Shown: piece by piece, positions 38,749 to 64,000 of the stretch | Numbering within the stretch: the stretch's first letter is position 1 | Layout of the letters: every line of letters begins with the position of its first letter | NCBI GenBank assembly: GCA_036496915.1 | Contig: DASXKH010000015.1 | Coordinates: forward strand, 902 to 64,901 | Source: Solirubrobacteraceae bacterium | GTDB taxonomy: Bacteria > Actinomycetota > Thermoleophilia > Solirubrobacterales > Solirubrobacteraceae | Direction of reading: 5' to 3' | DNA length: 64,000 nt | Notes under the pieces: generated by a model | The model's input: only the letters and a program-made list of their open reading frames with translations | Database searches by the model: none | Told to the model about the DNA's origin: nothing | Made by a program: the position numbers and the translations under genes

Positions 38749-38760
38749 TGTCCCAAGCTC

Positions 38761-43536: not shown

Positions 43537-43574
43537 GAGCCCGCCGCCTCGGTGGAGGTCCATAATCTCCGCGG

Positions 43575-44204
43575 ATGAGCCTGTTCACACGCCCGATCGA
43601 CACGACCCTGGCGGCCCTGCTGGAGGACGCGGGGCGCAACGTCGAGCGCTCGGCGCTGCTGCTGCGCGAGCTGCTGCGCGCCTTCCCCGAGCACGCCTCG
43701 GTGGCGCAGGAGCTGGGCGCGTGCGAGCAGGAGGGCGACCGCATCACCCACGACATCATCCACCGCATGGGCGGCGGGCGGCGGGTGCGCGCGCCGTTCG
43801 ACGCGGGCGACGGCTACGCGCTGGCGACGGCGATCGACGACGTCGTCGACTACACCGAGCAGGCGGCGGCGCAGCTGGACCTGTACGGGGTCGAAGCGCC
43901 GATGGAGCAGGCGGTGGAGTTCGCCGACGTGCTCGTCGCGGCCGGCGCGGAGATCCTGGGGGCGCTGCGCTGCCTGCACAGCGGCGGCGAGCTCGGCCCG
44001 CACCTGGTGGAGATCCACCGCCTGGAGAACGAGGGCGACCGGCTCCAGCGCGATGCCGTGACCTCGCTGTTCGCGGGCGGCATCGACCCGATGGTGGTGA
44101 TCCGCTGGAAGGACATCTTCGAGTCGCTGGAGGCGGCGGTGGACGCTTGCGAGACGGTCGCGCACGTGCTCGAGGGGATCACCTTGAAGCGCAGACGGCG
44201 CTGA
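43575..44204 (+). CDS. DUF47 family (PhoU-like) phosphate transport regulator
   Basis: EQEGDRITHDI, LATAIDDVVD, IHRLENEGD, WKDIFESLEAAVDACE. Confidence 0.92.
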   Translation: MSLFTRPIDTTLAALLEDAGRNVERSALLLRELLRAFPEHASVAQELGACEQEGDRITHDIIHRMGGGRRVRAPFDAGDGYALATAIDDVVDYTEQAAAQLDLYGVEAPMEQAVEFADVLVAAGAEILGALRCLHSGGELGPHLVEIHRLENEGDRLQRDAVTSLFAGGIDPMVVIRWKDIFESLEAAVDACETVAHVLEGITLKRRRR

Positions 44205-44989: not shown

Positions 44990-45054
44990 CTGCCCTGCAC
45001 GTCTGTGCACGGCCGGCGAACACGGCACGAGGGGGAGTGGGGCGGCGGGCTCAT
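44986..45054 (-). CDS. 22-aa mini-ORF bridging pstB2 and the lipoprotein gene
   Basis: ATGA overlap with the pstB2 stop and GTGA overlap with the lipoprotein start; MSPPPHSPSCRVRRPCTDVQGR. Confidence 0.4.
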   Translation of the reverse strand: MSPPPHSPSCRVRRPCTDVQGR

Positions 45055-48117: not shown

Positions 48118-48194
48118 GACATTTCCACTTCAGCTAAAAAGCCGTTTCCTGCGCAAGCATTGCCCATCGCCGCTCAGGACTCCTCCCGAGCCGG

Positions 48195-48220
48195 GCGCCG
48201 GGCGGTCGTGCGCCCGGCGC
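48195..48220 (-). other. Hairpin after pstS2
   Basis: GCGCCGGGCG-GTCGTG-CGCCCGGCGC. Confidence 0.6.
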
Positions 48221-48244
48221 GCTGTGAACGGGTTGCGTCTGCGC

Positions 48245-49063
48245 CTAGTGGATCGTGATCCACTGCGAGCCGATGATCTTCTTGGTCGTCCTGTTGCCGC
48301 TCGTGATCCAGGCGATGAACTTCGCCGCGGCGCCTTTCGGCCGGCCCTTCGTGACCATCCAGAAGTTACGCACGCCCTGGTACTGGCCGGACTTGGCGTT
48401 CTGCAGCGTGCAGGGGATGCCCTGGTAGCCGACCGCGTTCACGCCGCCCGTGAACGCGAACGACACGAACCCGATCGCGTTCGGGTCGTTTTTGACCTTG
48501 CTCTGCACGAGGCCGTTCGTTTCCTCCGCATTCGCGCTCGGGGCGATCTTCAGGCTCGGCCCGAGGAAGATGTTCTGGAAGGCGTCCTGCGTACCCGAGG
48601 AGGCGATGCGGTCCACGAGGTCGATCGAGCCCGAGATTTTCGAGCCCGGCACTTCGCTCCAGTCGCGGATGTTGCCCGTGAAGATGCCCTGCACCGTCTG
48701 CTGGTTGAGGTTCGCCAGGCGATTGCTCGGATGGGTGATCATGCACACGCCGTCGCGCGCGATCTTCGTGAACACCAGCCCGTGCGGGTCCGAGCCGACG
48801 ATCGGGTCGCGCGAGACGTCGCCGATGTCGACTTTGCCGGCGTTAACTTCGTTGACCCCCGCGTCGGAGGTGCCTTGGTTCACCTTCGGCGTCGACTGGT
48901 GCGTCGCCTTGTGGTAGGCGGAGGCGAGCTGGATCATCAGCGGGTAGATCGAGGTCGAGCCGCTCAGCAGCAGCGCGCGCGCGCCGGCGGCGGCGGGCGC
49001 GGCCAGCGTGAGGGCTGTAACGGCCAGCAGGATGGTCAGGGTACGGGTGGGTCGTCGTCGCAC
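48245..49063 (-). CDS. pstS: Second phosphate-binding protein (different PstS clade, no lipobox)
   Basis: SGSTSIYP, GTSDAG, GDVSRD, RIASSGT, AIGFVS. AAGGAG RBS; the signal peptide has no Cys. Confidence 0.88.
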   Translation of the reverse strand: MRRRPTRTLTILLAVTALTLAAPAAAGARALLLSGSTSIYPLMIQLASAYHKATHQSTPKVNQGTSDAGVNEVNAGKVDIGDVSRDPIVGSDPHGLVFTKIARDGVCMITHPSNRLANLNQQTVQGIFTGNIRDWSEVPGSKISGSIDLVDRIASSGTQDAFQNIFLGPSLKIAPSANAEETNGLVQSKVKNDPNAIGFVSFAFTGGVNAVGYQGIPCTLQNAKSGQYQGVRNFWMVTKGRPKGAAAKFIAWITSGNRTTKKIIGSQWITIH

Positions 49064-49279
49064 GGACAGGCTCCTTGTGTGGGCGGTTTCGGCAGGTTCG
49101 CTGTTACCAGGGTTTTGCCGTCGAGGATCCGTCCCCGGCGAGGCGCCTGCCAGTTTCCAGCCCCTCATCCGCGCAAACGTAAAGAAAATGTGTTCGCTGC
49201 TAGAAATATGCTCAGGCGCGAAAGAGGGGTTCGCCGCACGAACCGGTCCCGGTCGCGAATGGAGCGGTGCGGGCGAAAT

Positions 49280-49297
49280 GTTCTCAACTCGTTAACA
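49280..49297 (+). promoter_or_regulatory. PHO-box-like repeat upstream of the exported-protein cluster
   Basis: GTTCTCA-ACTC-GTTAACA, 11-bp period. Confidence 0.55.
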
Positions 49298-49329
49298 GGT
49301 CGAGGCCTCCCAGGGATCAATCTGCCGGG

Positions 49330-51333
49330 GTGCTCCCTCTGCATCGCGCACGCGGTCTTCCGCGTCGTGCGAGCGCTCGTGCCCGAACGGCGGCCCTCCC
49401 GGCGCTCGTCCTCCTGGGGTTCGCGACGCTCGCGCACGCCCCCGCGGCGACCGCCCTGATCTCCCCGGTCACGACGCTGGACGGCGCCAGCTCGGAAATC
49501 GTCGAGCTCGGCGGCGTCGCGATGGCCTCTGACGGCAGCGGTGGGCTCGTCTATCGCAAGCGCGTTGACGGCCGCCCCCACATCTTCGCCGCGCTCTACT
49601 CCCACGGCGTCTGGCAGGTCCCCCGGCGCGTCGACGTCGGCCAGCCCTTCGAATCCTCCTTCCCGGCGATCGGCGCCGGCGAAGGCGGCAGGCTGGTGGT
49701 GGTCTGGACAAACCACTACTCCTCCACGACCGACGGCCTCTTCTCCGCTGCCCTGGAGCCCGGCTCGACCGGCTTTCAGTCGCCTGTCCCCGTCGACCTG
49801 AACATCGGCCAGGCGATCGGCACGTATCCCTCGGTGGCGATGAACCTCGCCGGCAACGCGCTCGTCGCCTACCGCGTGATCACCGCCGTCAGCGGGCCCT
49901 CCACGCCGGAAATCCCGCCCGGCTACGTCAAGGCCGAAATCCGCATGGCCCGCTTCGACGGCGAGTTCTGGTCCTCGTTCGGGCAGCCGCTGAACCGCAA
50001 CCCCGCCCAGCCGATGCTCGCGCCCACCGCCGCCAACTCCCCGCGCGTGGCGATCGACCTCACCGGGCAGGGCATCGTCGCCTGGCAGGAGCCCGACGAC
50101 TCGTTCGTCAACCGCATCTACGCGCGGCGCATCTTCGGGATGACGCCCGGCAACATCCTCCAGGTCAGCCCCTCCGCCTACGCGGGGCATGCGCTGAACG
50201 GCCCCGCCGACGAGCTCGCGCTCGACACCGCCGGCTTCGGCGAGGGCGCGGTCGCGTGGCGCCAGCGGCCCGCACCCGGCTCGGGCTTCACCCGCCCGCG
50301 CGTGCTCGTCGCGGAGATCCCCTCCTCGTTCGACCCCCACGGCGCCGCCTTCGCGCCCGCGCGGATCGTCGACGGCGCCGGCGCCGAAGGTCCCGCGGGC
50401 CCGGTCGGCCCGCTCAGCCTCGGCCTCGACGGCGAGGGCGACTTCGACGTCGGCTTCGGCTCAGGCGTCTCGAGCCTCGACGCGCGCGGAACCGCAATCG
50501 GCCTCACCGTGCCGGTGCGCATGGACGACGGCGCGAGCGATATCGCCGGCGACCCGGTGGTTACGCGCGCGGACAACGGCGCGCTCGCCGCCGCCTGGAA
50601 GGTCGACGAGCACGGCGCCGGCGCTGTCGGCGTGCTCGAGCGCCGGGCGGACGGCACCCCCAACCGTCAGCTGGTCTCCGCGCCCGGCGGCGGGACCGTG
50701 CACCAGCTGCAGCTCGGCGCCTCCCACCACGGCGACGCGATCGTCGGCTTCCTGCAGGGCGATGGCGCCAACACGAAGATCGGCGCCGTCGTCGTGCGCG
50801 CTCCCCCGGGCGAGTTCGTGCTCGACACGCCCTCGGGCTGGGTCCACGCCGCGAAAGTCCCGCTGCAATGGGAAACCCCCTTGGCGGGCGCCGGCACGCT
50901 CACCTACGGCGTGCTCGTCGACGACCGCGAAGTCGCCGAAAACCTCACCACCACCGGAACGATCCTCCACGGCTCGGAGATCCCGAGCGGCGTCCACACG
51001 ATCCAGGTGCAGGCGACCGACTCGCTCGGGCAGGTCGTCGACTCCGTGCCCGCCACGCTCAAGATCGACCGCACGCCCCCGCGCGTGCGCGTGCGCGTGC
51101 GCGGCAGCTCGGTCACCGTGCGCGTCAGCGACGGGGCCAAGGGGCAGGTTTCGGGCGTCAACGCGAGCTCGGTGCACGTCCGCTTCGGCGACGGCGGCCG
51201 TCACGGCAGCGCGCACGGGCGCACCCTGCTCGGTCATCGCTACGCCGCCAGGGGGTCCTACACGATCACGATCACGGCTTCTGACAAGGCCGGCAACCGG
51301 ACCAAAGTGCGCCGGGCGGTGAAGGTTTCGTGA
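49330..51333 (+). CDS. Exported protein with beta-rich N-terminal domain, Ig-like domain and C-terminal PKD domain
   Basis: Signal ending ATA; IDRTPP; VRFGDG...HRYAARGSYTITITASDKAGN. Confidence 0.8.
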   Translation: MLPLHRARGLPRRASARARTAALPALVLLGFATLAHAPAATALISPVTTLDGASSEIVELGGVAMASDGSGGLVYRKRVDGRPHIFAALYSHGVWQVPRRVDVGQPFESSFPAIGAGEGGRLVVVWTNHYSSTTDGLFSAALEPGSTGFQSPVPVDLNIGQAIGTYPSVAMNLAGNALVAYRVITAVSGPSTPEIPPGYVKAEIRMARFDGEFWSSFGQPLNRNPAQPMLAPTAANSPRVAIDLTGQGIVAWQEPDDSFVNRIYARRIFGMTPGNILQVSPSAYAGHALNGPADELALDTAGFGEGAVAWRQRPAPGSGFTRPRVLVAEIPSSFDPHGAAFAPARIVDGAGAEGPAGPVGPLSLGLDGEGDFDVGFGSGVSSLDARGTAIGLTVPVRMDDGASDIAGDPVVTRADNGALAAAWKVDEHGAGAVGVLERRADGTPNRQLVSAPGGGTVHQLQLGASHHGDAIVGFLQGDGANTKIGAVVVRAPPGEFVLDTPSGWVHAAKVPLQWETPLAGAGTLTYGVLVDDREVAENLTTTGTILHGSEIPSGVHTIQVQATDSLGQVVDSVPATLKIDRTPPRVRVRVRGSSVTVRVSDGAKGQVSGVNASSVHVRFGDGGRHGSAHGRTLLGHRYAARGSYTITITASDKAGNRTKVRRAVKVS

Positions 51334-53492
51334 AACGGATTCTCGCCTCGAGCCAGGTCGCGGTGCTCTGCACGCTCGTCTTCGCCGCTTCGACACACGC
51401 GATCTACGGGCCGGCCGCCGGTGGGCTTGGGGCGGACATCGTCTCGGTCGATCGCGCTTCGGATGAACAGGCCGACGCGCCCACGAGCGACGCCGCGATC
51501 TCGGCCGACGGGCGGTATGTCGTGTTTCAATCGCGCGCGACGAACTTCTTCGAAAACGATGGCGTGGCGAACGGTGACCCCGAACCGCTCGATGCCTGCC
51601 GCGAGGGTGGCATCTTCCGCTATGACCGGGACACCGGCGAACTGGCGCTCGTCGCTGACGGCAGCGAGGCGGTGCTGAACAAGAATGGCGAATGCGAACC
51701 GTCGCACGTGATTCTCGGTGGCGCCGAAAGTCCCTCGATCAGCGCAGACGGGCGCTACGTCGCCTTCGATACCGCCCAGCAACTCGCGCCGCAGGACACC
51801 AATGAAAATTACGACGTCTACGTCCGCGACATGACCGTGCCGCTGTCCGCAGAACGCAAGAGCTCGGGTGCGTACACGCTCGTCTCGGCCAAGAACGGCA
51901 CCGAAGAGCCGGCTGCCTACATATCCAAAGAAACCCCCCAGCCCGGTCGCGAACCCGGCGCCGAAGTGTGGCCCAACACCGCGATCTCGGCCGACGGTCG
52001 CTACGTTGCGTTCCGTACCGGCGAAGTCAGCTCGAATCTGCCGGACGACGCTGGAGTCGAAACGCCGCCGCAACAGCTGTTCGTGCGCGACCTACAGGCA
52101 AAGACGACCACGCTCGTCAGCACCCGGAAAAAGGGTGAACCCGAAGAAGGCAAGCCAGCCGGTGGCGCCATCGGCCCCACCACGATCAGCGGGGATGGCT
52201 CCACCGTTGCCTGGGTGGCAACCAATGCGCCCTCCCAAACGCGTTTCCTGTCCGGGGAGTCGCTGAACAACAGCGAGCCCTACTACCTCTGGCGGCGCTG
52301 GCAGGAACCGGCGGCCGTCACCCGCCGTGTGACCGGAATCGCCGATCCCGACGATCCCGCGTGCCCGCCGGATGGTGAAATTACGTTGAACCAGACCTCG
52401 ACAGGCCCCTGCTATGGACCCTTGAGCGAGCCGGAGTCAGCCCTTGGAAGCATCGCCCTTACGTCTCTTGGCCTGAGCGATGACGGCTACACGGTCGCTT
52501 TCCTGGCCGGTGCTGCGCTGCGTCCGAACATCACGAAGACAAATGGCCTGGATCTCTTTCTCACGAGCATGCGACCCGGCGTGTCGCGCAAGGCCGGTAC
52601 GCGCGAGTTGACGCTGGGTGTCAAATCCGGCAACCCGGGATCGACTCCCTCGATCGAATCGGTCGCGCTTTCCCCGGACGGCTCGACGATCGCATTCACC
52701 TCTTTGCGCGACGACTTCGTGCTGCCCGAACCGGATCCAGTGGGCGCCTTCCGTTCCTTTCCGACGGTGGGCGATCTATACGTTGTACACCTGGGTGCGA
52801 ATACGCTGGAACGCGCGATTGTCAGTTACGAAGGCGGCGATCCGAACAGGTCAGTCTTGGTCAATCCGACGCTCTCCCAGGATGGCTCCACGGTCGCGTT
52901 TGTCTCGGCGGCGACCAATCTCGTATTCGGCGACGGCAATGGCTTCCCCGATGCTTTCGCAGCGACGCTCCAGGCCCCCGGCGGCACGTCCACCCCACCG
53001 GCCGGGGTCAACGCGGGCTCGGGCGGCTTCTCACTAACCGCGGTGTCATCCCCAGAACTTGGCGTGACAGTGAAGCGGGCCAAGGACGGGGGGGTCACCC
53101 TGCTAGTGGAGACACCGGGCCCAGGCAAGCTGGTCGCCAAGGCGCGGGGCTCGATTCCCAAGGCCGCCGCGGCCAGGTCGTCGCGTGCGCACAAGTCCGC
53201 CGCCCGCGCGGCGAAGGCGAAGAAGAAGCCGAAGCCTCCACCCCCAGTCCTGCTCGCGAGCGGGGCGGCGACGGCGCGCTCGGAGGGCACGACCACCTTG
53301 ACGCTGCACATCTCCGCCAGGTACGTCAAGGACCTCAAGCGCGCCGTCAGGCTCAAGGCCAACGTCGCGATCGCTTTCACGCCGCCCGCGCCGGCCGAAG
53401 CGCTGTCGGACGAAGTCTCCGCGACGTTCGTCTCCGCTTCGCCGGCGAAGAAGCCTTCGCAGAAGAGCAAAGAGAAGAGGAAGAAGGGGTGA
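51330..53492 (+). CDS. Exported TolB/PD40-like beta-propeller protein with basic C-terminal domain
   Basis: Repeated (P/A)xISxDGRYV(A/V)F motifs; D(V/L)(Y/F)VRD; Lys-rich tail ending KRKKG. GTGA overlap. Confidence 0.88.
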   Translation: MKRILASSQVAVLCTLVFAASTHAIYGPAAGGLGADIVSVDRASDEQADAPTSDAAISADGRYVVFQSRATNFFENDGVANGDPEPLDACREGGIFRYDRDTGELALVADGSEAVLNKNGECEPSHVILGGAESPSISADGRYVAFDTAQQLAPQDTNENYDVYVRDMTVPLSAERKSSGAYTLVSAKNGTEEPAAYISKETPQPGREPGAEVWPNTAISADGRYVAFRTGEVSSNLPDDAGVETPPQQLFVRDLQAKTTTLVSTRKKGEPEEGKPAGGAIGPTTISGDGSTVAWVATNAPSQTRFLSGESLNNSEPYYLWRRWQEPAAVTRRVTGIADPDDPACPPDGEITLNQTSTGPCYGPLSEPESALGSIALTSLGLSDDGYTVAFLAGAALRPNITKTNGLDLFLTSMRPGVSRKAGTRELTLGVKSGNPGSTPSIESVALSPDGSTIAFTSLRDDFVLPEPDPVGAFRSFPTVGDLYVVHLGANTLERAIVSYEGGDPNRSVLVNPTLSQDGSTVAFVSAATNLVFGDGNGFPDAFAATLQAPGGTSTPPAGVNAGSGGFSLTAVSSPELGVTVKRAKDGGVTLLVETPGPGKLVAKARGSIPKAAAARSSRAHKSAARAAKAKKKPKPPPPVLLASGAATARSEGTTTLTLHISARYVKDLKRAVRLKANVAIAFTPPAPAEALSDEVSATFVSASPAKKPSQKSKEKRKKG

Positions 53493-53528
53493 TCGCGCCG
53501 ATCTTGTGACCACTTTACGCAAAGTGTT

Positions 53529-53579
53529 GTTACCAACTTGTTATCAATCTGGAACCAAGTCGTAACTTCTCGTCACAAC
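53529..53579 (+). promoter_or_regulatory. AT-rich array of 11-bp-period repeats (PHO-box-like)
   Basis: GTTACCA (53529), GTTATCA (53540), GGAACCA (53551), GTAACTT (53562), TCACAAC (53573). Confidence 0.55.
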
Positions 53580-53699
53580 TTGATGCCGCGGCGTTACCGC
53601 CTTGTATATCTTCTGTGAACGGGCTTGCGCTCGGGCGACGGGGCGTGTGAGACTCGCTTCTGTTCCCGACCTCTGCTCGTGAAAGGACTCATCCTGCTC

Positions 53700-55760
53700 A
53701 TGCGTGCAAGCTTTCCCCTGACCGCTGAACGCGGTCGTATCCGCGCCGTCGTAGCGGCGCTCTGTGCGGTGGCCGCGATGGCCGCTGTCGCAGCCGTGGC
53801 GCCGCCCGCGGCGCACGCCGCGTTTACTATCGGACGTTGCGAAGGCGCCCCCATCGAAGGCCAGGGCTCCTCTGCTCAGAAGGAAGCCCAGCTCGAATTC
53901 TGGAGCACTACCGTCTTTCACGGCGTGGAAGGCTGCGGCGCTTCGGCGCCTCACGTGGAATATAAGGGCAACGGAAGCGGCTGTGGGATCGCCTCAATCG
54001 GCGGCGCTGCGAGTTCGATCGAATGCCTTGGCTTTACGGCGGCTGAATCGAAACCCGGGTTCCGGGCTCCATCGACCCGCTACGCCGGAAGCGACGCGCC
54101 GCTGACCGTCACCCAGCAGCTTGCGGCCGACGCCGCCGGCGGGACGAAACCCGGCGTGATCCACCAGATCCCGGTTGCCTCGTTCGCGGTCGCGATCATC
54201 GTGCACTTCCCTGAAGGGTGCAAGCTCAAGGACCCGGGCTCCGGAGCTGCCTCCAACGGCACGGTGGGCAGCCTCAATGGCGATACAAGCACCGGTGGTC
54301 CCAATGATCCGCCTGGCGGAGAAACGGGGGACAAGGCGTCCGAAGAAACTCTGCGCGTTCACATCGAAGCGTCCGAGATGGAGACGATCTGGGACGGAAC
54401 GTCTCAGACCTGGGGAAACATTGTTCCCGAAGCGGATCTCGAAGGCGAAGGCAAAACCGCCAAAGAATGCGCTGAAGTGCCGGTAATCCGGATTGCCCGG
54501 TTCGATGGCTCGGGTACTACATACAATTTCAAGGCATACCTTAGCCTGCTGCCCGGCGCACCTGCTGGTCTGTGGACGGAAGCGCCGGTTGCCGGTGACA
54601 ACTCCACCTGGCCTGAAACCTTCAATTCTGAAAAGAAGAAGCCTGAAGCCGTCACGATTACAGAACCCGTCGGTAAAAAGACATTTGAATGCAAATCGTC
54701 CAACCACATCTGTACTGCTGCCGCCGAAGGGGGCGGTCCGCTCACCGAAGCTGTGGCTGGTGTCAACGGCTCGATCGGCTACGCGGACCTAGCGACGTCC
54801 CGCAAGCACGGCTTCTACATGGAAAAGAACAAAAAAGACCACACCTACTGGATTCCGATGCAGACCGTCAGTCCGGAAAAAGGCAACGAAGTAGGCGTGG
54901 GTTACGCTGAGCCCTCCGAAGTGGCGACTTCCAATTTGGTTGCCTCGCCCGAAGGCGCCAATTGCACGGACGCCGACTACCGCGGCTTCCCAACCGAAGG
55001 GGCAGACCCGACCCTTGGCGATTGGGAAAAATCGATCGCTACGGGTAGCACTGCCAGTGCAATCAAAAACGAACCGGTTCACGCCTATCCGATATGTGCC
55101 CTGACGTATGACTTCGCATGGGATGACGACGCGCCTGTGTACGGCGAAAGTCTGGAAGAGCAGGAAAAGGCCAGGACCGTCAAGGACTACCTGGAAGGTG
55201 TCGAGTCGACCAAGGGCCAGTTCCAGTTGGCTCTGCACGACTATGGAACGCTGCCGCTCAGCATCGTGCAGATCGCCCAAAACGGCGTGAAAGCGATCGA
55301 CTGGAACAAGTCGGCGGGCTCCGGTAAAGGCAGCGAAGAAGTTGTGAAACCGCCGGAAAGTAAAACTCCGACGGTGACCACCACGACCACAACGACGGTC
55401 GTTACACCCCCCAGCAACGTCTTCTCGGTCGCAGGGACCAAGATCAAGGGCAAGAGCGTCGTGCTCTCGCTGGTCCTCCCTGGCGCCGGGAGGGTCCAGA
55501 TCAAGGCGGTCGGTGGTGGTGTGACGGTGGCCAACGTCTCGGCGAGCGTGGGCGGCGGTCAGGGAACGGTGACGTTGCCGATCTCGAGCGCTGCGGTGAA
55601 GAAGCTCGCGAAGGTCAAGGGCCACAGGCTGTCGGTCAAGATCACGGTGACGTTTACGCCCACGGGCGGAGCGGCGGCGAGCAAGACGAAGACGATCACG
55701 ATCACCCAGGCCGCGATCACGGCGAAGAAGAAGACGAAGAAAGGCAAGAAGAAAGGCTAG
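53700..55760 (+). CDS. Exported PstS/DING-like phosphate-binding protein with insertions and basic C-terminal domain
   Basis: GQGSSAQ, GSGCG, AGSDAP, RFDGSGTT, GSIGYAD, YPICALTY; AHA signal cleavage site; Thr linker; tail ending KKGKKKG. Confidence 0.85.
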   Translation: MRASFPLTAERGRIRAVVAALCAVAAMAAVAAVAPPAAHAAFTIGRCEGAPIEGQGSSAQKEAQLEFWSTTVFHGVEGCGASAPHVEYKGNGSGCGIASIGGAASSIECLGFTAAESKPGFRAPSTRYAGSDAPLTVTQQLAADAAGGTKPGVIHQIPVASFAVAIIVHFPEGCKLKDPGSGAASNGTVGSLNGDTSTGGPNDPPGGETGDKASEETLRVHIEASEMETIWDGTSQTWGNIVPEADLEGEGKTAKECAEVPVIRIARFDGSGTTYNFKAYLSLLPGAPAGLWTEAPVAGDNSTWPETFNSEKKKPEAVTITEPVGKKTFECKSSNHICTAAAEGGGPLTEAVAGVNGSIGYADLATSRKHGFYMEKNKKDHTYWIPMQTVSPEKGNEVGVGYAEPSEVATSNLVASPEGANCTDADYRGFPTEGADPTLGDWEKSIATGSTASAIKNEPVHAYPICALTYDFAWDDDAPVYGESLEEQEKARTVKDYLEGVESTKGQFQLALHDYGTLPLSIVQIAQNGVKAIDWNKSAGSGKGSEEVVKPPESKTPTVTTTTTTTVVTPPSNVFSVAGTKIKGKSVVLSLVLPGAGRVQIKAVGGGVTVANVSASVGGGQGTVTLPISSAAVKKLAKVKGHRLSVKITVTFTPTGGAAASKTKTITITQAAITAKKKTKKGKKKG

Positions 55761-55794
55761 GCGTAAGCAGCTGGCCGACTCAAGGCAAGATCCA

Positions 55795-55849
55795 AGCACA
55801 CGGCCCCGGCGCCCGGCACCGCAGTTAGGCGCCGGGTGCCGTCCGTGCT
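55795..55849 (+). other. Long hairpin after the PstS-like gene
   Basis: AGCAC/GTGCT, ACGGC/GCCGT and CCCGGCGCC/GGCGCCGGG pairings. Confidence 0.65.
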
Positions 55850-55912
55850 CCGGCGGATGTTTGTTGTGTCCGCAGTTACGACAACCACGACGACAAGAGC
55901 GCTCAAACACCC

Positions 55913-58144
55913 ATGACTGACGACGACGATATCCAGCCCGAGGGCACAGAGCCCGGAGACACAAGTCCCACGCCCGCGAACGGCCGTGCTCCGGGGGAGA
56001 TCGCCGGGGCGTCCAAGCCCCGCCCGTCGGCCTCTCGCCCGTCGGTGCGCTCGGGTCTTGCGCATAAACGCAATCCGGTGCTTGCCACGGCGGGAGACAT
56101 CGCTGTCGGTGCGCGCCGGCTCGTGTTCCGCGACAAGCTCGCGCTGTTCCTGGCGGTCGCGTCGATCGCGCTGGCGGTGACGTTCTTCGTGCTGTTGGGG
56201 TCGATCGGCCCCTCCAGCCACGGCACGGAACTGCCGATCAGCCGCGTCGTCTCGCTGGCCGAGCACAAACAGGTCGCGACGGCGACGCTGCTCGACCACG
56301 ACGATCGCGTGGAGATCGCGCTGAAGGCGCCGACGGCGGCGGGCAGCGTGCCGGCCGGGACGGCGTCCGGCGGAACCACAGCGACAGGGACGACGACTGC
56401 CGGCTCCGAACAGCTCAACACGACTTCTAAAAACGCGCCGCTGGCCACGCCCGCGAAGCTCGAATATTGGGCCGCGTACCCCGTCTCGGGCGCGCAGACG
56501 CAGGGGCTTTTGCAGACCCTCACCCGCGCGGGCGTGGTCGTGAACGTCGATCAGCAGTCGGGCAAGGCGCCGCGCGCGATCCTCGTGCAGTTCCTGCTGC
56601 CGATCCTGCTGCTCGTGTGCCTGTTCGCGCTGTTCATGCGCATCGGCGCGGACGGCGGCGCGGGCGGGATCGCGGCGTTCTCGGAGTTCACCGGCAAAGG
56701 GCGCAAGAAGGGCAAGGGCAAAACTGAAGCGATCACGTTCGCGGACGTCGCCGGCGCCGGTGAGGCCGTGGCCGAGCTGCGCGAGATTCGCGACTACCTG
56801 AACGACCCTTCGCGCTATCTGAACGTGGGCGCGGCGGCGCCGAAGGGCGTCCTGCTGGTCGGCCCTCCGGGCACCGGCAAGACATTGCTCGCGAAGGCGG
56901 TCGCGGGTGAGGCAGACGCCTCCTTCTTCTCGCTGTCGGGGTCGGATTTCGTCGAGTCGCTTGTCGGCGTCGGCGCGGCGCGCGTGCGCGATCTGTTCGC
57001 GAAGGCGCGCAAGGCGGCGCCGGCGATCATCTTCATCGACGAGTTCGACGCCGCCGGGCGCAAGCGCGGCGCCGGCATCGGGCAGGGCAACGACGAGCGC
57101 GAGCAGACGCTGAACGCGCTGCTGGTGGAGATGGACGGCTTCTCCGGCGACGGCGGCCTGGTCGTGATGGGCGCGACGAACCGACCCGACATCCTCGACC
57201 CCGCGCTGCTGCGCCCCGGGCGCTTCGACCGCCAGGTCACGATCGACGTCCCCGACGTGCACGGGCGCCTGGAGATCCTGCGCCTGCACGGCGCCAAGCG
57301 CCCGCTCGGACCCGACACCTCGCTGGAGGAGATCGCGCACCAGACGCCGGGCTTCAGCGGCGCCGAGCTGGCGAACGTGATCAACGAGGCGGCGCTGCTG
57401 AGCGTGCGCGACTCAAACCACGAGATCGACCAGGCGACGCTCGAGGAGTCGATCGATCGCGTCGTCGCCGGACCGGCTAAAAAGCACATCCTCACGCGCG
57501 AGGAGCGCTGGCTGATCTCCGTGCACGAGGCCTCGCACGCCGTCGTCACGGATGCGCTGGGGCACACGAGCTCGACGCGCAAGCTCTCGATCGTCGCGCG
57601 CGGGCGCACGCTGGGCACGGCCGCGCACATGCTCACCGACCGCGATCAGGTGATCCAGACCGAGTTCGACCTGCAGCGTCAGCTGATCGTGATCGTCGCG
57701 GGCACGGCCGGCGAGCGGATCGCGTTCGGCAGTCTCTCCACGGGCGTGAGCGACGACCTGCACGCCGCGACCTCCCTGGCGCGCAGCATGGTCACCTCGT
57801 TTGGCATGTCAACCGCGCTGGGACCGGTGACGATCGGCGAGAAGGGCGGCGAGGTCTTCCTCGGCGCATCGCTGCAGGACCTCGGCTCGGTCGGACCGTC
57901 CACGCTCGACCTGATCGACCGCGAGGTCGAGCGGCTCGTCGGCGACGCCGAAACGCGCGCCGCGTTCATCCTCGACCGCCATTGGAGCGCGGTCGAGGAG
58001 ACCGCCAACGCCCTGCTGGAGCAGGAGACGCTGTCGGGCGTCGCGCTCGACGCCGTGCTTTCGACCGTGCACGAGATGACGCTCGAGGAGCTGCGCGACG
58101 TGCGCCGTCCCGCGCCCGAGCGGGACCCGGGGCGCAGACCTTGA
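55913..58144 (+). CDS. ftsH: FtsH-family AAA+ zinc metalloprotease paralogue
   Basis: Two TMs, [49 protein letters not shown]. Confidence 0.93.
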
Positions 58145-59919
58145 GGCGGCCCGCCGCCGGGATGCTGATCGCCGCGGCGATCGTCTCGGCCGGCGTCGCG
58201 TCCGCCCGGGGCGAAGCGAGCTGGCGCCTGGAACAACCACCGCCGCCGGAAGGAGCACCGTTCAAGGTCCCTCTCGGACGCGTCGACGACATGGAGTTCT
58301 TCGCACCCAACGAGGGCCTGTTGAGCGTCGAGGGCAACGCCACCATCTCCGCCGGTCTGTTCTTCTACAACGGGCGCGGCTGGCATCAGCTGGCGACCGT
58401 GTGTGGCGGCGCCGGAGAAGTCTCGCGCATCGCCTGGGCGGGACCCGACGAGTTCTGGACGATCACCGAACCGAGTGAGCCACGGGTGGGCTCCGGGCTG
58501 GGACTGTGTCACTTCAAGGAAGGCGTGGTCGTCGGTTCCTACTCGACGCCGCTGCAGTCCCCGGACCCGTTCCATCCGCTCGATGCGGCCGCCTGCAACG
58601 GCCCGGACGACTGCTGGTTTGCGGGCGTCGGGAGCGAGGATCCCTCGGGGCAGCGCATCGGCGCCTTTCATCTGCATTGGAACGGGACGGCCTTGACGAG
58701 CTCCTACCAGCCCCAGGGCCGTGGTGTCAGTGGGCTGGCGTTCTTCCACGGCGCCTTCTACGAGAGCACGTTCGTCGGCGCCGAAGCGGGCAACACGACC
58801 AAGCAGGTGACGTTGGCGACGCCCGAGCCCGAACACCCGATCCTGGTGCACAAGCTGGTCGGCTCGACGTTCACCGGCGCGAGCTTTCTGCCCTTCCCCT
58901 ACCCGGGCGTGCCGACCGAAGGCACCGAGCTGCTGTCGGCCAAGTCAGACGGCTCTGGCCTGTGGTTCTCCGGAGGCGGCGCCGCCTCGGGACCGGACGC
59001 ACCGCGTGACGGATCGGTGCCGAGCCCGCCCGTGGCGGTGCGCTACTCCGAACCCTTCTATCAGCAAGCCCCGATCGAAACCTCGCTGTTCGGACCTGAA
59101 GATCGCTTCATCGACATCGCACCGGTCCCGGGCACCGAAGATGCCTGGGTGGCCGACCAGCCCTATGCGTCACGCGGGAGCGCCACCGCCAAGGCCAAGG
59201 TCGCGCTGATCGGGGCGGACGGAGCGAGCACTCTGGACGTCCTGCCCGTCAGCGGCCCGGCGCGGGGAAGCGCGCAGGCGATCGCCGCCACCGGCCCCGA
59301 AGAAGCCTGGATGGCAACCTCCGCCGGCTGGTTGTTCCACTACACCAACGGGGCCGTACTGCCCGAAGACACCGATGCCAACTGGACGAGCACGATCACC
59401 CAGCGCCCGAACGAGTCGATCGAACAGTTCGTGCCCGACACTCCCCCGGCGGACAACTCGCAGCTGTTCGCGCCGCCCCCGGTCGCGGTTGAACAGGCGC
59501 AGAGCCTGGAAGCACCCGTGCCGGAGGTCATCCCGGCGCTGCTGAAGGACATAAAAGTCTCCCGCCACGGCCTGACCGTGATCGTCAGCTTCAAGCTGGC
59601 GGGCCTCGCCGATGTCCAGCTGATCGCCAAGCGCCACGGCAAGACGATCGCCAAGACCGCCAAGCTGCGCCTGAAGGCCGGTAGGCACTCATTGAAGCTG
59701 AGCTTCAGCGCCAAGCGCTGGCCGACCGGTCTGAGCTTCAAGACCAAGGCGCTCGTCAAGCTCAAGCCTGTGCCCGCGACCGGATGTGAAGGCAAGTCCG
59801 GTGCCTCGGGCGGCGGGGGCGCAGGCCCCAATGCGGTCGCGACGTCATGCGAATCGGGCTCCTCCTCCAGCTCCCCGGGCGCGGGGCCGAACGCGGTCGC
59901 CACGAGCCTGCGCCGATGA
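58141..59919 (+). CDS. Exported hypothetical protein (propeller-like) with basic C-terminal domain and duplicated GAGPNAVATS tail
   Basis: TTGA overlap with the ftsH stop; signal peptide; DCWFAG and EAWMAT blade-like motifs; Lys/Arg-rich C-terminal domain. Confidence 0.8.
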   Translation: MRRPAAGMLIAAAIVSAGVASARGEASWRLEQPPPPEGAPFKVPLGRVDDMEFFAPNEGLLSVEGNATISAGLFFYNGRGWHQLATVCGGAGEVSRIAWAGPDEFWTITEPSEPRVGSGLGLCHFKEGVVVGSYSTPLQSPDPFHPLDAAACNGPDDCWFAGVGSEDPSGQRIGAFHLHWNGTALTSSYQPQGRGVSGLAFFHGAFYESTFVGAEAGNTTKQVTLATPEPEHPILVHKLVGSTFTGASFLPFPYPGVPTEGTELLSAKSDGSGLWFSGGGAASGPDAPRDGSVPSPPVAVRYSEPFYQQAPIETSLFGPEDRFIDIAPVPGTEDAWVADQPYASRGSATAKAKVALIGADGASTLDVLPVSGPARGSAQAIAATGPEEAWMATSAGWLFHYTNGAVLPEDTDANWTSTITQRPNESIEQFVPDTPPADNSQLFAPPPVAVEQAQSLEAPVPEVIPALLKDIKVSRHGLTVIVSFKLAGLADVQLIAKRHGKTIAKTAKLRLKAGRHSLKLSFSAKRWPTGLSFKTKALVKLKPVPATGCEGKSGASGGGGAGPNAVATSCESGSSSSSPGAGPNAVATSLRR

Positions 59920-62900
59920 GCTCCGAAGGCTTGGTTGGTCGTCGTATCGGCGCCGTCGCAGGGATGGCGCTGCTTGCGCTGCTCGGTCTCTACTGCCTGG
60001 CGCATCTGGTCGGCTCCGGCGCGCGCGCGGACACGGGTGGGAACGATCCCCAGCCCCAACCGGTGCTCGGCACCGCCTCTGGTCCGACGGTCTTGATGGG
60101 TGCCGCCACCTCGGGTGAACCGGGAGAGGCGTGGGCGTACCGCGTACTGCCACTGAACGTTCCGCCACCCGCGAACGGGAACGGACGTGCGCAGTTCGCC
60201 GCGCCGCCGGGTGGCGAATCGCCACCGGGCCAGCTGGTGTTCGAGCGTGCGACCGACGCCAATCCCGATTGGACGGTCTACGAAACCCCACTGAGCGAAG
60301 CCCAGGCCCAGCCCTATCGGGGGATGAGCCCCGATCGGCCCTCGGCGAGAATCACGCCACACGCCGGCGGCCTGCTCGCCGGACAGGACCCGACGCGGCC
60401 CTCGGGCAAGCGGATCGTGGTGCTCGCACGCGATCCGGGCGGACGCTTTCACGTGCTGCCCGAACCGTCCACGGGGGTGCTGCCCGAAGCGGGCGAAGGC
60501 GGGGATCCCGCCGCGGGAACGCTGGGCGAAGGCGAAGGCGCCGGGGCGGTCGCCGACGCAGCTATTGAAAGCGCTGGTCACACCGAAGCGTATTTCGCCG
60601 CGCTTGGCCGCAAGCAGGATACGTCTATCGCGCGCTGGAGCGGCACGCAGTGGTCACGCGAGCCCGTGGAACTGCCCAGCGGCTACACCGGCTCCTTCAC
60701 GATCGTCGCGCTCGCCGGGACGACGCCACAGAACATGTGGCTGCTCGGCAAGGCGAGTCAGGAAAGCGGCCTCGGGCCGATGCTGTTCAAGCGCGTGGTC
60801 AACGGCTCGGGCGAAGGGCGCTGGGAACACGTCGAGCTCGGCTCGGCGCTGTTCGCCCAGGCTGCGACTCCGGCGCAGAACGTCTCGGACCTCGCGCCGC
60901 TCGCCAGTCCCGGTCAGTCGCTCACCGTCTCAGACCAGGGGGTGTGGATCGACGGCAACATGCAGGCGCCGGGCGGCGGCAGCAACGGTTACGACTTCAC
61001 TCTTTACTACGACATCGCCCAGGCCAAGGTCACGACGAGCTGGTGCGACGCCCATAGCGGCGGCGGGGAAGCGCTGTGCGCTCATCCGCTGGGCGTGCGC
61101 TTTGGACGCCTCGCGGGCTATCGCAGCTTCGCCTTCGACGGCGCCGGCTTCGGCTCGCGGATCGTCACCAACCCGCTGCAGCCCGGCGGCGGGGACTCGA
61201 CCAACATGGGTTCCTATTTGAGCCTCGAAGGCGCCACCTTCCAGCGGATGCCCGGCGCTGGGCCGAACGATGCGCCCGGTGGCGCCTTCTACACACCGAG
61301 CGATGGTTGGCTGGAAGGACTGGTGCAGATCACAGGTAATGCTCAGCCCCAGCGGCTGACGAGCTGGCCCGTGTCCGCGCGTGCGCCGTTCACGGGCGTT
61401 GCGCCTGCGCCCGGGACAACGCCGGGCGATCCCAATGCGCAGGCGCTCGCCGTCGGCGCCGGAGGGGCCGTCGCCCGCTACATCCCCGGACAGGGTTGGC
61501 AGCGTGAGTTCCTGCTCAGCTCGAGCGGCGCGGTCAGCTCGCCCACGCTACGGGCGGTCGCGTGGCCTGAGGCCAATCGTGCTTTCGCGGTCGGCGATCT
61601 CGGTGCGCTATGGGTGTGGCGCGCGGAAACCGGCCTGTGGGAGAAAGATCCGGCGGCGCCGCCGGAAGGCACTCACGCCGATCTGCTGGGGATCGCCTTC
61701 GACCCGAGTGATCCCGCGCTCGGCTATGCCGTCGGCCTCAGCGGGACGCTGTGGAGCTATGACAAGACCTGGACGCAGGACGCGCTGCCCGAACCATTCC
61801 AGAAGGAGCTCAGCGAAGGTCTCAACGGAAACCCCGAAGAAGCCCTGAAGGCGAACTTCACGTCGGTCGCCTTCGCCGGATCGGAGGCGATGGTCGTGGC
61901 GGAACACGATCTGCTCGTCAACTCCGGCTCCGGGTGGCGAATCGACCCTGAAGTCCACGCCCTGCTGGCGAGCTTGTCGAGCCGACCGCAGCTGAACGTC
62001 ATCGCCGGTCTCCCGAATGGCGGGGCGGTGCTCGCCGGGCACAACGTGGTGTTGGAGCGAGATGGCGCGACCGGCCCGTGGCGCTTCTCCGAACAGCCGA
62101 TCGTGGATGAGACCGCGGTTGCGGCGAGCGCCTATATGGATGGCTCGAAAGTGCGCGCCGTGCTTTCGGTGGTGCCGGACTTCATCTACCCACCACCGCT
62201 GATCCTGCCGCCGATCGACCCCAACACGCCGCCGCCGCTGATCCCGCCCAACCCCCTCCCCGGCGACGGCTACATGTTGCGCGAAACGGGCGGCGGCTGG
62301 GAGGACGAGGAGCGCGCCGCCTACGCGGGCGACAGCGAGGACAGGCCGGTCAAGGCCGATCCGATCGCCGCGTTCGATCTCGGCCCCGAAGGCTCGGGCT
62401 GGGCCGTCGGTGGATGGAGTGGGCACGCCGACGACGCCGGACGCGGGACGGACAACGGTGGCTCGGGTCAGGCGGTGCGCGAAAACGTGCAGACCGCCGG
62501 GATCTACCGTTACGCGCCCGGTGGTGGCGCACAGAGCCCGCCGAGCGCCGCAACCGCTCCCGTCTCGTTGCAGGCGAACGTCGCGACGTTCGCACTCGCC
62601 GGCCATGCCGAGTGCGCCGAACACTGTGCCGACCTTGCCGACGAGGGGATCGCCCCCGACCGCAATCTGACAAGTGCGCTGAGCGCGATCGATGGCCTTG
62701 CGGGCCAGCCCAACGGCCCGCGCGCGCTCCTCTACACCGGCGGACGCGAGACGCCGGGCGAGGGTCCGGAGTCGAGCGCCGAGGCCAACCGTTACGCCCA
62801 GCTGCTCGCCCAAGGCGGTGGGCTGGGAGTGTTCCCGGCCGTATCCGCGGGGGATTCCGAAGGCGGCGGCGCGGGCGCGTTCGGCGCGGCGTTCGCCGGC

Positions 62901-64000
62901 TTTCCCGCGCCGTTTGGCGAAGGCGGTCTGCCGGCGGGCGTCAGCACGTCGAACATCCCCGGCCCGAGCGGGCCCGTGCGCGCGGGAGCGCGCACGCACT
63001 ACGCTTTCGACAGCACCGGCTCGGCGGGCACCGTGCGGGTGATCGTGATCGACAACTCGCGCGGCTCGCTGGCGGCGAGCGATCCTTACCAGAACCCCGC
63101 CGAACCGCAGACGCCGTGGCTGGCCGAGATGCTTGCCGACGCCCGCGCTCGTGGCATCCCCGCGATCGTCGTGGGCTCTCGCGAGCTCAACCCCGGCCTG
63201 CCGCCTGCCCTGAACGTGGCCTCCGACGCGAGCGAAGAGGCGCAGATCATGGTTGCAGGTGGCGCTTCGGCGTACCTGTACGAGCGCCCTGAGGAAAGCC
63301 GCGCCAGCCGTATCCCCGCGGGTGCAGCCGTGACGATCCCCGAGCTCGGCACCGGCGCGCTCGGCTATCGCTCGGCGATCGGCGGATCGTTCACACCGGG
63401 CCAGCCGGATGCGCTGTTCGGCGCGACCGGCTACCTGCTCGTGAACGTCAACGTCGCTCAGCGCAACCCCGCGACGAACGTTGCGCCGGTCACGGCGCGA
63501 CTGATTCCGCTCGTACAGAGCCTGTCGCTGAACCCGCTCGACGGGACGCTGCTGCGGCGCAGCGCGCCAGCGTTGTTCGAGGGCCTGGCGCGGCGTCCTG
63601 TCAGCGGCGATCGCTGGGGGCCGGCGTCGGCCGACGGCAGTCCCAACCCGCCCGGCGCGAGCCCCTACAGCGAATTCCCCCAGCCCCTGTGCCTGCAATC
63701 CGACTGCGCGAGCGCGATCGAACCGGAATACACGTTCACCTCCTCCGAACCGGAAATCGCGAGCTTCGTCGCGCACGATCCCAACTCGACGAACTTGCGC
63801 AAGCCCCTGCAGGATGCCGCCGGGCATGTCATCCCCGACTCGAAATCGGGCATTCTGTGCGCATTCAACGCCGGTAACACGGTGGTCACGATCTCGGCCG
63901 GGGGACTGTCTTACTCTGTGCCGGTGACGGTCCTGGGCGGCAGCGTCGAGCAGCCCTGCGGCACCGTGCCGTTGGCCGCAAGCCGCTTTGCGAAAGCGGC
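59916..64000 (+). CDS. Giant (>1360 aa) exported protein: BNR/YCF48-like propeller repeats, degenerate metallophosphoesterase domain, Ig-like domain; truncated by the window end
   Basis: ATGA overlap; frame open to the window end by manual translation. LRAVAWP..RAFAVGDLG, LLGIAFDP..GYAVGLSG, HYAFD..TVRVIVIDNS, QTPWLAEML, FTSSEPEIA..GNTVVTISAG. Confidence 0.85.
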   Translation, partial: MSSEGLVGRRIGAVAGMALLALLGLYCLAHLVGSGARADTGGNDPQPQPVLGTASGPTVLMGAATSGEPGEAWAYRVLPLNVPPPANGNGRAQFAAPPGGESPPGQLVFERATDANPDWTVYETPLSEAQAQPYRGMSPDRPSARITPHAGGLLAGQDPTRPSGKRIVVLARDPGGRFHVLPEPSTGVLPEAGEGGDPAAGTLGEGEGAGAVADAAIESAGHTEAYFAALGRKQDTSIARWSGTQWSREPVELPSGYTGSFTIVALAGTTPQNMWLLGKASQESGLGPMLFKRVVNGSGEGRWEHVELGSALFAQAATPAQNVSDLAPLASPGQSLTVSDQGVWIDGNMQAPGGGSNGYDFTLYYDIAQAKVTTSWCDAHSGGGEALCAHPLGVRFGRLAGYRSFAFDGAGFGSRIVTNPLQPGGGDSTNMGSYLSLEGATFQRMPGAGPNDAPGGAFYTPSDGWLEGLVQITGNAQPQRLTSWPVSARAPFTGVAPAPGTTPGDPNAQALAVGAGGAVARYIPGQGWQREFLLSSSGAVSSPTLRAVAWPEANRAFAVGDLGALWVWRAETGLWEKDPAAPPEGTHADLLGIAFDPSDPALGYAVGLSGTLWSYDKTWTQDALPEPFQKELSEGLNGNPEEALKANFTSVAFAGSEAMVVAEHDLLVNSGSGWRIDPEVHALLASLSSRPQLNVIAGLPNGGAVLAGHNVVLERDGATGPWRFSEQPIVDETAVAASAYMDGSKVRAVLSVVPDFIYPPPLILPPIDPNTPPPLIPPNPLPGDGYMLRETGGGWEDEERAAYAGDSEDRPVKADPIAAFDLGPEGSGWAVGGWSGHADDAGRGTDNGGSGQAVRENVQTAGIYRYAPGGGAQSPPSAATAPVSLQANVATFALAGHAECAEHCADLADEGIAPDRNLTSALSAIDGLAGQPNGPRALLYTGGRETPGEGPESSAEANRYAQLLAQGGGLGVFPAVSAGDSEGGGAGAFGAAFAGFPAPFGEGGLPAGVSTSNIPGPSGPVRAGARTHYAFDSTGSAGTVRVIVIDNSRGSLAASDPYQNPAEPQTPWLAEMLADARARGIPAIVVGSRELNPGLPPALNVASDASEEAQIMVAGGASAYLYERPEESRASRIPAGAAVTIPELGTGALGYRSAIGGSFTPGQPDALFGATGYLLVNVNVAQRNPATNVAPVTARLIPLVQSLSLNPLDGTLLRRSAPALFEGLARRPVSGDRWGPASADGSPNPPGASPYSEFPQPLCLQSDCASAIEPEYTFTSSEPEIASFVAHDPNSTNLRKPLQDAAGHVIPDSKSGILCAFNAGNTVVTISAGGLSYSVPVTVLGGSVEQPCGTVPLAASRFAKA

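Follow-up and report, generated by a model that had tools for sequence, protein, structure and literature searches.

Why does a gene for an FtsH protease lie among genes for exported proteins, next to an operon for phosphate uptake? This question is raised by the right-hand end of a 64,000-nucleotide stretch of DNA from a Solirubrobacteraceae bacterium (contig DASXKH010000015.1, positions 902 to 64,901; hereafter the window). Maps of GC content at third codon positions (GC3) by frame, together with stop-to-stop open-frame maps, place six plus-strand genes between 49330 and the window end: g1, g2, g3, ftsH, g5 and g6 (Table 1). The original prediction, made from the letters of the window, had described six or more co-directional genes here as a candidate undescribed phosphate-responsive surface-protein system built around an FtsH paralogue, and the layout it gave agrees with our maps. 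Our own answer is tentative, held at slightly less than even confidence: the cluster may be a conserved envelope module of the Solirubrobacterales that belongs at least partly to the phosphate-starvation regulon. For g1-g3, the predicted phosphate regulation is well supported; for ftsH, g5, g6 and g7, the last a gene beyond the window end, it is plausible.

Gene order across the Solirubrobacterales

The g5 protein has 1736 database relatives, and clustering at 50% identity gives 380 groups. The best 120 relatives all share 70% identity or more with it and come from metagenome-assembled genomes of Solirubrobacteraceae; relatives of g6 are also found in Conexibacter and Patulibacter isolates. 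A scan of one genome per species gave 440 g5 loci, the best 80 of which were searched with all cluster proteins by tblastn. All of these 80 come from Solirubrobacterales or Thermoleophilia except one contig labelled Chlamydiae. That contig (CAJCHW010000098.1, 'Chlamydiae bacterium'; locus L043) carries pstS and g1-g6 up to the end of the locus, with proteins 46-75% identical to those of the window; it almost certainly belongs to the Solirubrobacterales and was binned wrongly.

The order g3-ftsH-g5-g6 is kept wherever the flank suffices, in about 75 of the 80 loci, so the gene order that the original prediction expected to find in relatives is indeed there. The g1-g2 pair lies upstream in most loci and is inverted downstream in some loci of the more distant group (group B), while g7 follows g6 in most. 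Most loci also have a canonical pstS gene at most 10 kb away, which lies either upstream in divergent orientation or right behind g7. Identities to the group-B proteins are 61-69% for ftsH, 48-55% for g5, 45-59% for g6, 51-60% for g7 and 28-38% for g3, which marks ftsH to g7 as a slowly evolving core.

Two lineages in which g5 is only about 35% identical, L003 and L087, keep a g3-like binding protein, PKD proteins, g1, g2, g5, g6 and g7. Both have ftsH inverted; in L087, ftsH and the g3-like gene are adjacent and divergent. A PstS-like gene immediately adjoins ftsH in every lineage, including those where ftsH is inverted and those where the two genes nearly abut. Linkage that survives rearrangement in this way points to function rather than inherited order.

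Translational coupling is part of the same picture. The original prediction had the genes mostly coupled by short overlaps, and base-by-base reading confirms this at three of the five junctions: 4-nt overlaps join g1 to g2 (GTGA), ftsH to g5 (TTGA, with an alternative ATG start at 58162) and g5 to g6 (ATGA). The other two are gaps, of about 200 nt between g2 and g3 and about 150 nt between g3 and ftsH. Overlaps of 4 nt also appear in the gene calls of relatives. In L003, g5 and g6 are called as one protein of 2062 aa (P0164); a second protein that matches over g5 (P0169, 2055 aa) is long enough to be another such fusion, and three further loci (L055, L063 and L076) have no stop between the g5 and g6 frames. 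Translational coupling links ftsH, g5, g6 and g7, and no other genes of the cluster are as well conserved. The view that the cluster was undescribed is borne out: our literature search found no account of it, every homologue carries the annotation 'hypothetical', and Pfam has no family for g5, g6 or g7.

One link to phosphate comes from the promoter regions of g1 and g3. Repeats with an 11-bp period had been noted at both, and they were recovered by a repeat search, by a self-identity test and with position weight matrices (PWMs). The PHO box of Streptomyces coelicolor consists of 11-nt direct-repeat units with the core GTTCACC (PMC4415409). The core of the repeat between pstS2 and g1 resembles it, and in relatives the array next to pstS runs GTTCACC/GTTCTCA/GAACACA/GTTCACC. 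In front of g3 stand two near-exact tandem 11-mers, TTGTTACCAAC and TTGTTATCAAT (82% identical), followed by about three degenerate units (GGAACCA, GTAACTT, GTCACAA); the units span 53527-53581 and are conserved in relatives. Across 75 loci, self-identity upstream of g3 is 0.51 at lag 11, compared to 0.39-0.43 at the other lags from 7 to 16, and 64% of these loci have their highest value at lag 11, compared to 7% in coding controls.

Two motifs learned from pstS-side sequence in relatives both give g3 promoters scores well above controls. One, obtained by Gibbs sampling, was learned only from regions upstream of canonical pstS in group B; with it, g3 promoters score a median of 11.3, against 0.5-3.3 for coding, shuffled and ftsH-upstream controls. 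The other was built from 24 close relatives (group A), with the window excluded, using the sequence between pstS and g1. Its consensus, read from the aligned sites of the closest relatives, is TG(T/A)TAAC-N4-TGAGAAC (reverse, GTTCTCA-N4-GTTAACA). This PWM scores above 6 at only three places in the 64-kb window, and controls reach at most 5.7. The best score in the window, 20.3, falls at 49276-49300 in front of g1; 53525-53560 in front of g3 gives 12.8 and 12.0. PHO-like repeats also precede the g3-like genes of L003 and L087. Both the g1 and g3 promoters therefore have what is looked for in a member of a Pho regulon: at least two tandem 11-nt units, and the same motif as canonical pstS. The common motif suggests that one regulator, most likely a predicted PhoP/PhoB orthologue, would act on the pst operons as well as on g1-g2 and g3. 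A sigma-70 promoter scan gave no match, as expected at this GC content.

Two observations concern the DNA around the g3 repeats. Between the repeats and the g3 ATG runs a leader of about 100 nt (53600-53699) that hardly differs among close relatives (TGTATATCTTCTGTGAAC, CTGTGAGACTCGC, GAAAGGAC); a search of Rfam gave no match for it, and it might act as a regulatory RNA. In L001, about 0.9 kb separates g2 from the g3 repeats (4640-5380 of that locus), compared to about 200 nt in the window. The insert holds two small minus-strand open reading frames (65 and 55 aa), possibly a toxin-antitoxin pair, and the repeats and leader downstream of it are intact.

A divergent PstS-family protein, an unusual FtsH and their co-encoded proteins

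Every protein of the cluster except FtsH has a single N-terminal hydrophobic segment, and no lipobox was seen in the exported proteins on reading their N-termini. The proteins other than FtsH are therefore predicted to be exported non-lipoproteins, in keeping with the original description.

The phosphate link of the promoters is matched by the g3 protein. Against TIGR00975 it scores 46.7 bits (E 2e-12), below the curated PstS cutoff of 205 bits, and the window protein has no Pfam match. Its orthologues in L002 and L087 match PBP_like_2, and a profile of 13 g3 orthologues matches 22 PstS/DING chains in the PDB, the best being 8ods (E 1.3e-16). The signature of phosphate binding is kept: GSS, GSG, SD-P and R-x-D-x-SGT are invariant or nearly so, and S58, S93, G94, D132, R267, D269, S271, G272 and T273 are invariant across the 13 orthologues. 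Judged by sequence, g3 is a divergent PstS-family protein with an intact predicted phosphate-binding signature. In these motifs, as in the tandem 11-nt repeats at the g1 and g3 promoters, the cluster is like PstS and the PhoR-PhoP regulon of Streptomyces. Unlike PstS, g3 is twice the size and has large insertions, six invariant cysteines (probably three disulfides), an Ig-like C-terminal beta-sandwich and a poly-Lys tail, and its gene is followed by ftsH instead of pstCAB.

The original prediction had also compared g3 and its neighbors to the DING proteins of Pseudomonas, whose export machinery, the type II secretion system Hxc, is induced by phosphate limitation. As there, an exported PstS-family protein would be under phosphate control, which here is predicted. 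The export analogy fails: no type II secretion genes were found among the called genes of the window and of L001, L002 and L084, the N-terminal signal-like segments are ordinary, and Sec signal peptides suffice. The g3 protein is also nearer to PstS than to DING, whose structures its profile matches weakly (E about 1e-4 to 6e-4).

Pfam matches and the g3 orthologue profile uphold the originally assigned PKD/Ig, TolB-like propeller and PstS/DING-like natures of g1, g2 and g3. The C-terminus of g1 has Big_13 and PKD domains (Pfam Big_13, PKD_4 and PKD), and its N-terminal ~530 aa, with repeated 'xVAW' strands, look like a propeller; orthologues, 43-94% identical, occur in most loci. The g2 protein is a PD40 propeller of the TolB/Tricorn type (Pfam PD40, E 8e-15, with a faint Tricorn_N match) that ends in a beta-sandwich and a Lys-rich tail. 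This C-terminal domain is common to g2 and g3 (E 3e-6), and that of g5 is weakly similar (E 0.014). The beta-sandwich ends are encoded at 53190-53489 in g2, 55470-55757 in g3 and 59520-59730 in g5, and the Lys/Arg-rich tails of g2 and g3 are kept as basic tails throughout the order. The common beta-sandwich could be a docking or wall-binding module.

The FtsH of the cluster passes the FtsH equivalog cutoff (TIGR01241, 633.3 bits against 600) and has AAA (E 3e-43), AAA_lid_3 (E 2.7e-13) and Peptidase_M41 (E 1e-42) domains. Hydropathy places two transmembrane helices at residues 70-102 and 217-250, around an outside domain of ~130 aa; they are preceded by a disordered N-terminal extension of ~95 aa whose MTDDD start is conserved. 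Walker A and B, the second region of homology (SRH), HExxH and the third zinc ligand, an aspartate (GVSDDL), are all present in an alignment to T. maritima FtsH and are conserved in orthologues. Pore loop 1 differs. It reads SLVG instead of (M/L)FVG (T. maritima, DFVELFVGVGA), so that the phenylalanine, the substrate-gripping residue of FtsH, is replaced by leucine. The Leu-for-Phe loop was found in 73 of the 82 orthologues scanned; three of the nine without a match are cut by the locus end, and the FtsH of L003, whose loop variant lay outside the search pattern, is SLVG as well. Every readable orthologue has leucine at this position. By its sequence, then, the protein belongs to the FtsH family on every test except the pore-loop aromatic.

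A second ftsH-like gene is present in L004, the closest relative (92% g5 identity), at 20862-21758 on the minus strand, about 10 kb downstream of g5. Its product is 67% identical to the cluster FtsH over the protease half, which suggests that the FtsH family is duplicated in this lineage. At the matching position, the source contig has a PKD-type exported protein (L084 18149-18703). For the FtsH of the window, the paralogy named in the original prediction is putative, and the role in maturation or quality control given to it there is purely hypothetical.

Structure models support the propeller that had been assigned to g5 and the Ig domain assigned to the giant g6; for the propeller assigned to g6 there is a faint Ycf48-type sequence signal. 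The AlphaFold2 (AF2) model of g5, made with 51 sequences (predicted local distance difference test score, pLDDT, 86), has a propeller at ~27-402, a beta-sandwich at ~468-537 and a disordered tail. The g6 protein begins with an N-terminal signal or anchor and a propeller-like region of ~830 aa with faint Ycf48/PSII_BNR similarity. Ycf48/HCF136 (PF14870), a propeller of photosystem II assembly, is the sole sequence-level match of g5 (E 0.03) and g6 (E 0.017), with scores below the Pfam cutoff: g6 reaches 14-15 bits, compared to a gathering cutoff of 27, and such sub-threshold matches are precomputed on many g6 orthologues. We considered and rejected g5 as a Ycf48 homologue. Its lone PDB match (E 0.033) is lost with the orthologue profile, and in Foldseek, Ycf48 is among the best compact matches (template-modeling score 0.62-0.65) with G-beta and paraoxonase propellers scoring similarly, so we take the resemblance as a common fold only. 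The host organisms are not known to be photosynthetic, and the Ycf48 likeness is therefore probably just that of the propeller fold.

The second half of g6 holds a different domain. Residues 870-1361 model with pLDDT 88 and a predicted template-modeling score of 0.90 as a calcineurin-like metallophosphoesterase fold (about 870-1200) followed by an Ig-like domain. The top Foldseek matches are Lmo2642, SMPDL3A, purple acid phosphatases, GAP50 and Rv0805, with E from 3e-7 to 2e-5 for 15 phosphoesterase chains; by sequence, the domain matches no metallophosphoesterase family. All 12 aligned lineages have other residues in place of the DxH, GD, GNH(D/E), H and GHxH motifs, and the strand ends, placed by sequence position rather than structural superposition, read AGHAEC, YTGGR, SAGDS, VIDNS and VVGSRELN. 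Judged by these motifs, the domain is catalytically dead. A phosphoesterase fold that lacks the metal-ligand motifs is what the term 'pseudo-phosphatase' in the original prediction implied. The domain models confidently with the fold of purple acid phosphatase, SMPDL3A and GAP50, and differs from them in lacking the canonical motifs and in lying inside a multi-domain protein of 1558 aa. The GAP50 of Plasmodium is itself a catalytically dead, membrane-anchored scaffold. Past the window end, g6 continues with a Pro-rich linker, a C-terminal transmembrane helix (read in an orthologue) and a basic tail; a sortase-type sorting signal was considered and dropped, because LPVGA is not kept in the alignment consensus. 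Overall, g6 is a huge single-pass membrane protein with propeller-like regions and a phosphatase-fold domain outside.

Three more genes follow on the source contig. The g7 protein, 264 aa with four invariant cysteines and a 4-nt overlap of its gene with g6, has no Pfam or PDB relative even by profile search; its string 'W..A...C..GG.LPT' may be a motif like that of C-type lectins or DUF1566. The g8 protein combines a cytoplasmic zinc ribbon, a transmembrane helix and an outside tail, and g9, a transmembrane-anchored PF04185 phosphoesterase, closes the cluster. The genome of L087 has no g9, and has a PhoD-like phosphatase gene 8 kb downstream of the cluster (L087 24068-25516, minus strand).

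The phosphate island and the g3-ftsH junction

The pst domain matches at 45051-49168, on the minus strand facing the cluster, confirm that the cluster is divergent from a second pstSCAB operon. This operon, pstS2-pstC-pstA-pstB, encodes two BPD_transp_1 proteins and a PstB-like ATPase (TIGR00972, 314 bits, below the cutoff of 343.2). Measured from g3, this pstCAB set and its own pstS are 4 kb upstream. To its left are a PhoU_div gene and an orphan winged-helix gene, with a third copy of the direct-repeat motif between them, and then the pstS1 operon, in which pstS1 and pstC1 are followed by two unannotated open frames (38761-39981 and 40237-40620). The operon ends, at 36907-38760 on the minus strand, with genes for a full-length PhoU (TIGR02135, 156 bits; cutoff 130) and an OmpR-family response regulator (open frame of 335 aa). 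With pst, PhoU and regulator genes along its length, the stretch from 36.5 to 64 kb can be regarded as one 27-kb phosphate island, and the OmpR-family regulator is a candidate binder of the 11-bp repeats. The usual context of ftsH is tilS-hpt-ftsH-folE; that of the cluster is this island instead.

Table 1. Features of the window, by position

Feature	Position	Strand	Remarks
Orphan OmpR-type winged-helix gene	43012-43584	-	no receiver domain; pstS1 operon follows
Third direct-repeat motif site	43504-43539	-	PWM 15.8, second best; between orphan winged-helix gene and PhoU_div gene
PhoU_div/DUF47 gene	43575-44204	+	left of pstS2 operon
pstS2	48245-49168	-	PBP_like_2 E 1e-28, TIGR02136; first gene of divergent pstS2-pstC-pstA-pstB operon
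PHO-box-like site	49276-49300	+	two 11-nt direct-repeat units, GTTCTCAACTC and GTTAACAGG; pstS2/g1 intergenic region, about 30 nt upstream of g1 start
g1	49330-51333	+	667 aa, predicted export
g2	51330-53492	+	720 aa, predicted export
11-bp-period direct-repeat array	53504-53603	+	upstream of g3
g3	about 53700-55760	+	686 aa, predicted export
GC-rich hairpin, then T-rich stretch	55795-55859	+	between g3 and ftsH; terminator- or attenuator-like
ftsH	55913-58144	+	743 aa
g5	58141-59919	+	592 aa, predicted export
g6	59916 to beyond 64000	+	cut by window end; 1558 aa full length on source contig

Whether ftsH and the genes after it share the regulation of g3 depends on the junction between the two. 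The RNA of 55760-55870 folds with -53.7 kcal/mol (z -2.3), and a terminator-like site lies at 55840-55859. Hairpins stand at the same place in most group-A loci. Their sequence varies between lineages while the stem is kept, which is typical of a terminator or attenuator, and such hairpins follow many binding-protein genes. No hairpin is found in L045, L055, L056 and L063, where the g3 stop and the ftsH start nearly abut, and in L087 the g3-like gene and ftsH share a divergent promoter region that carries the repeat. Given these abutting genes in distant species and the common promoter region of L087, partial read-through from g3 into ftsH is the most economical reading.

Two further features of this region were observed. 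The 9-mer CCGCAGTTA occurs twice, 51 nt apart, in the loop region of the hairpin (55819-55827) and just downstream (55870-55878). Between 52000 and 56000, g2 and especially g3 have a GC content of 0.60-0.65 and a GC3 of 0.55-0.8, compared to about 0.9 in their neighbors, which could reflect high-expression codon bias or a different origin.

Competing readings of the cluster

If the cluster is a phosphate-regulated envelope module, an OmpR/PhoP-type regulator would turn on g1-g2 and g3 under phosphate limitation. Read-through of the hairpin, or direct coupling where the genes abut, would raise ftsH-g5-g6-g7 as well, together with g8 and the PF04185 phosphoesterase g9 in this lineage. At the cell surface, the exported proteins would assemble on the membrane-anchored g6 scaffold; the beta-sandwich of g2, g3 and g5 could serve for docking, and g2 and g3 may be kept at the anionic wall by their basic tails. 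There, g3 would capture phosphate freed by g9 and other phosphatases and pass it to the neighboring PstSCAB, while a specialized FtsH hexamer beneath the complex would control the assembly or turnover of g6, g8 and g9 through their cytoplasmic tails.

The phosphate part of the original proposal holds up well: the repeats, the g3 signature, the PF04185 phosphoesterase, the linkage to pstS and the island all speak for it. Its extension to the whole cluster is where it weakens, as no PHO-like site was found upstream of ftsH (median score 2.9 in group B and -5.9 in group A). This is one of several points that count against a phosphate-regulated envelope module. The terminator-like hairpin after g3, predicted here and in most close relatives, separates ftsH from the genes before it, and together with the missing site it suggests that ftsH-g5-g6-g7 may be a separate constitutive unit. 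These four genes are conserved to an extent that is usual for core machinery and less so for surface proteins that scavenge nutrients, and g8 and g9 are restricted to group A, being absent from group B. OmpR-family regulators in general bind direct repeats spaced at 10-11 bp. No RNA runs holding the sequence were found; the runs that hold it are soil DNA metagenomes. Finally, the surface complex, the docking role of the common domain and every role of FtsH are parts of the model that we infer.

Several of these points lead naturally to a different reading, in which ftsH-g5-g6-g7 encode the main, possibly the only, FtsH of the cell together with lineage-specific outside partners that modulate or cage the protease, and only g1-g3, which would simply be neighbors of this module within a phosphate island, are regulated by phosphate. 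In E. coli, HflK and HflC modulate or cage FtsH in this manner, and the likeness is real in that the cluster protein has the full FtsH architecture and its co-encoded partners are extracytoplasmic, as HflKC are. Besides the hairpin and the lack of a PHO-like site, this reading would explain why, within the cluster, evolution has been slowest in ftsH, g5, g6 and g7. It also draws on the SLVG loop, which is common to the orthologues of every lineage examined, L003 included, so that the SLVG FtsH could be the ancestral FtsH of the order; the second ftsH-like gene of L004 (67%) looks like a recent duplicate of the same type. What it leaves unexplained is the company that ftsH keeps: a PstS-like gene stays next to it in all lineages, even where ftsH is inverted or the two nearly abut, canonical pstS is linked in most loci, one domain of g6 is derived from a phosphatase, and the edge of the cluster is taken by g9 in group A or by a PhoD-like gene in L087. 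Moreover, no SPFH/Band-7 domain was found in the cluster proteins or among the called genes of their neighborhoods (window, L001, L002, L084). The partners here are propeller and pseudo-phosphatase proteins instead, and the FtsH has a Leu pore loop and a 95-aa N-terminal extension. With neither SPFH partners nor secretion-system genes present, the cluster does not belong to the HflKC or the DING/Hxc model. We consider the housekeeping reading rather unlikely, though the likeliest of the rivals.

A sensor of phosphate across the membrane is another option, and an unlikely one in our judgment. Pseudo-enzymes often act as ligand sensors, and in such a scheme g3, together with the dead phosphatase domain of g6, would signal how much phosphate or phosphoester is present outside and, through g6 (and g8 in this lineage), gate the proteolysis by FtsH of a cytoplasmic or membrane regulator such as PhoU, tuning the Pho response. 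The island also contains genes for PhoU and a PhoU_div protein, g6 has a C-terminal transmembrane helix with a basic cytoplasmic tail, and the architecture of g8 is typical of substrates of regulated proteolysis. There is also a precedent, which serves the envelope-module reading too, for FtsH acting in phosphate-starvation signaling: cyanobacterial FtsH1/3 lowers the level of PhoU and is needed for Pho induction (PMC11287208). That link is regulatory, with genes that are not clustered with pstS and no exported partners, and PhoU as a substrate in our system is a candidate. It is not obvious why a sensor would need a scaffold of 1558 aa and four large propeller proteins; moreover, group B has no g8, the cluster genes include no histidine kinase or sigma/anti-sigma pair, and the regulator to be degraded is hypothetical. 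Going further, the SLVG FtsH and g5, g6 and g7 might form a new trans-envelope machine, a softened-pore ATPase that no longer mainly degrades and instead powers or gates the assembly, insertion or release of a giant phosphate-capture scaffold; we regard this as distinctly improbable. Simple chance, with unrelated exported proteins beside ftsH and a pst operon, can be set aside almost entirely. It could appeal to the two junctions out of five that are gaps of 150-200 nt and to the downstream inversion of g1-g2 in some group-B loci, but the synteny contradicts it: the order is conserved across 80 species-level genomes, and two lineages at 35% identity have kept the gene set despite rearrangement, with g5 and g6 fused in places, three 4-nt overlaps and a motif common to two promoters.

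The Solirubrobacterales are abundant soil actinobacteria that have been almost unstudied, and phosphate is one of the main limiting nutrients in soil. As a phosphate-regulated envelope module, the cluster would add an order-wide and strongly conserved component to the actinobacterial Pho response, with three members, g5, g6 and g7, that lack any family assignment. It would also offer a natural FtsH variant in which the pore-loop phenylalanine is replaced and which is tied to extracytoplasmic partners, and this bears on how FtsH selects its substrates and how it is regulated from outside. Should the trans-envelope machine prove true, it would be a new way for a monoderm bacterium to couple a nutrient-harvesting structure outside the cell to ATP in the cytoplasm.

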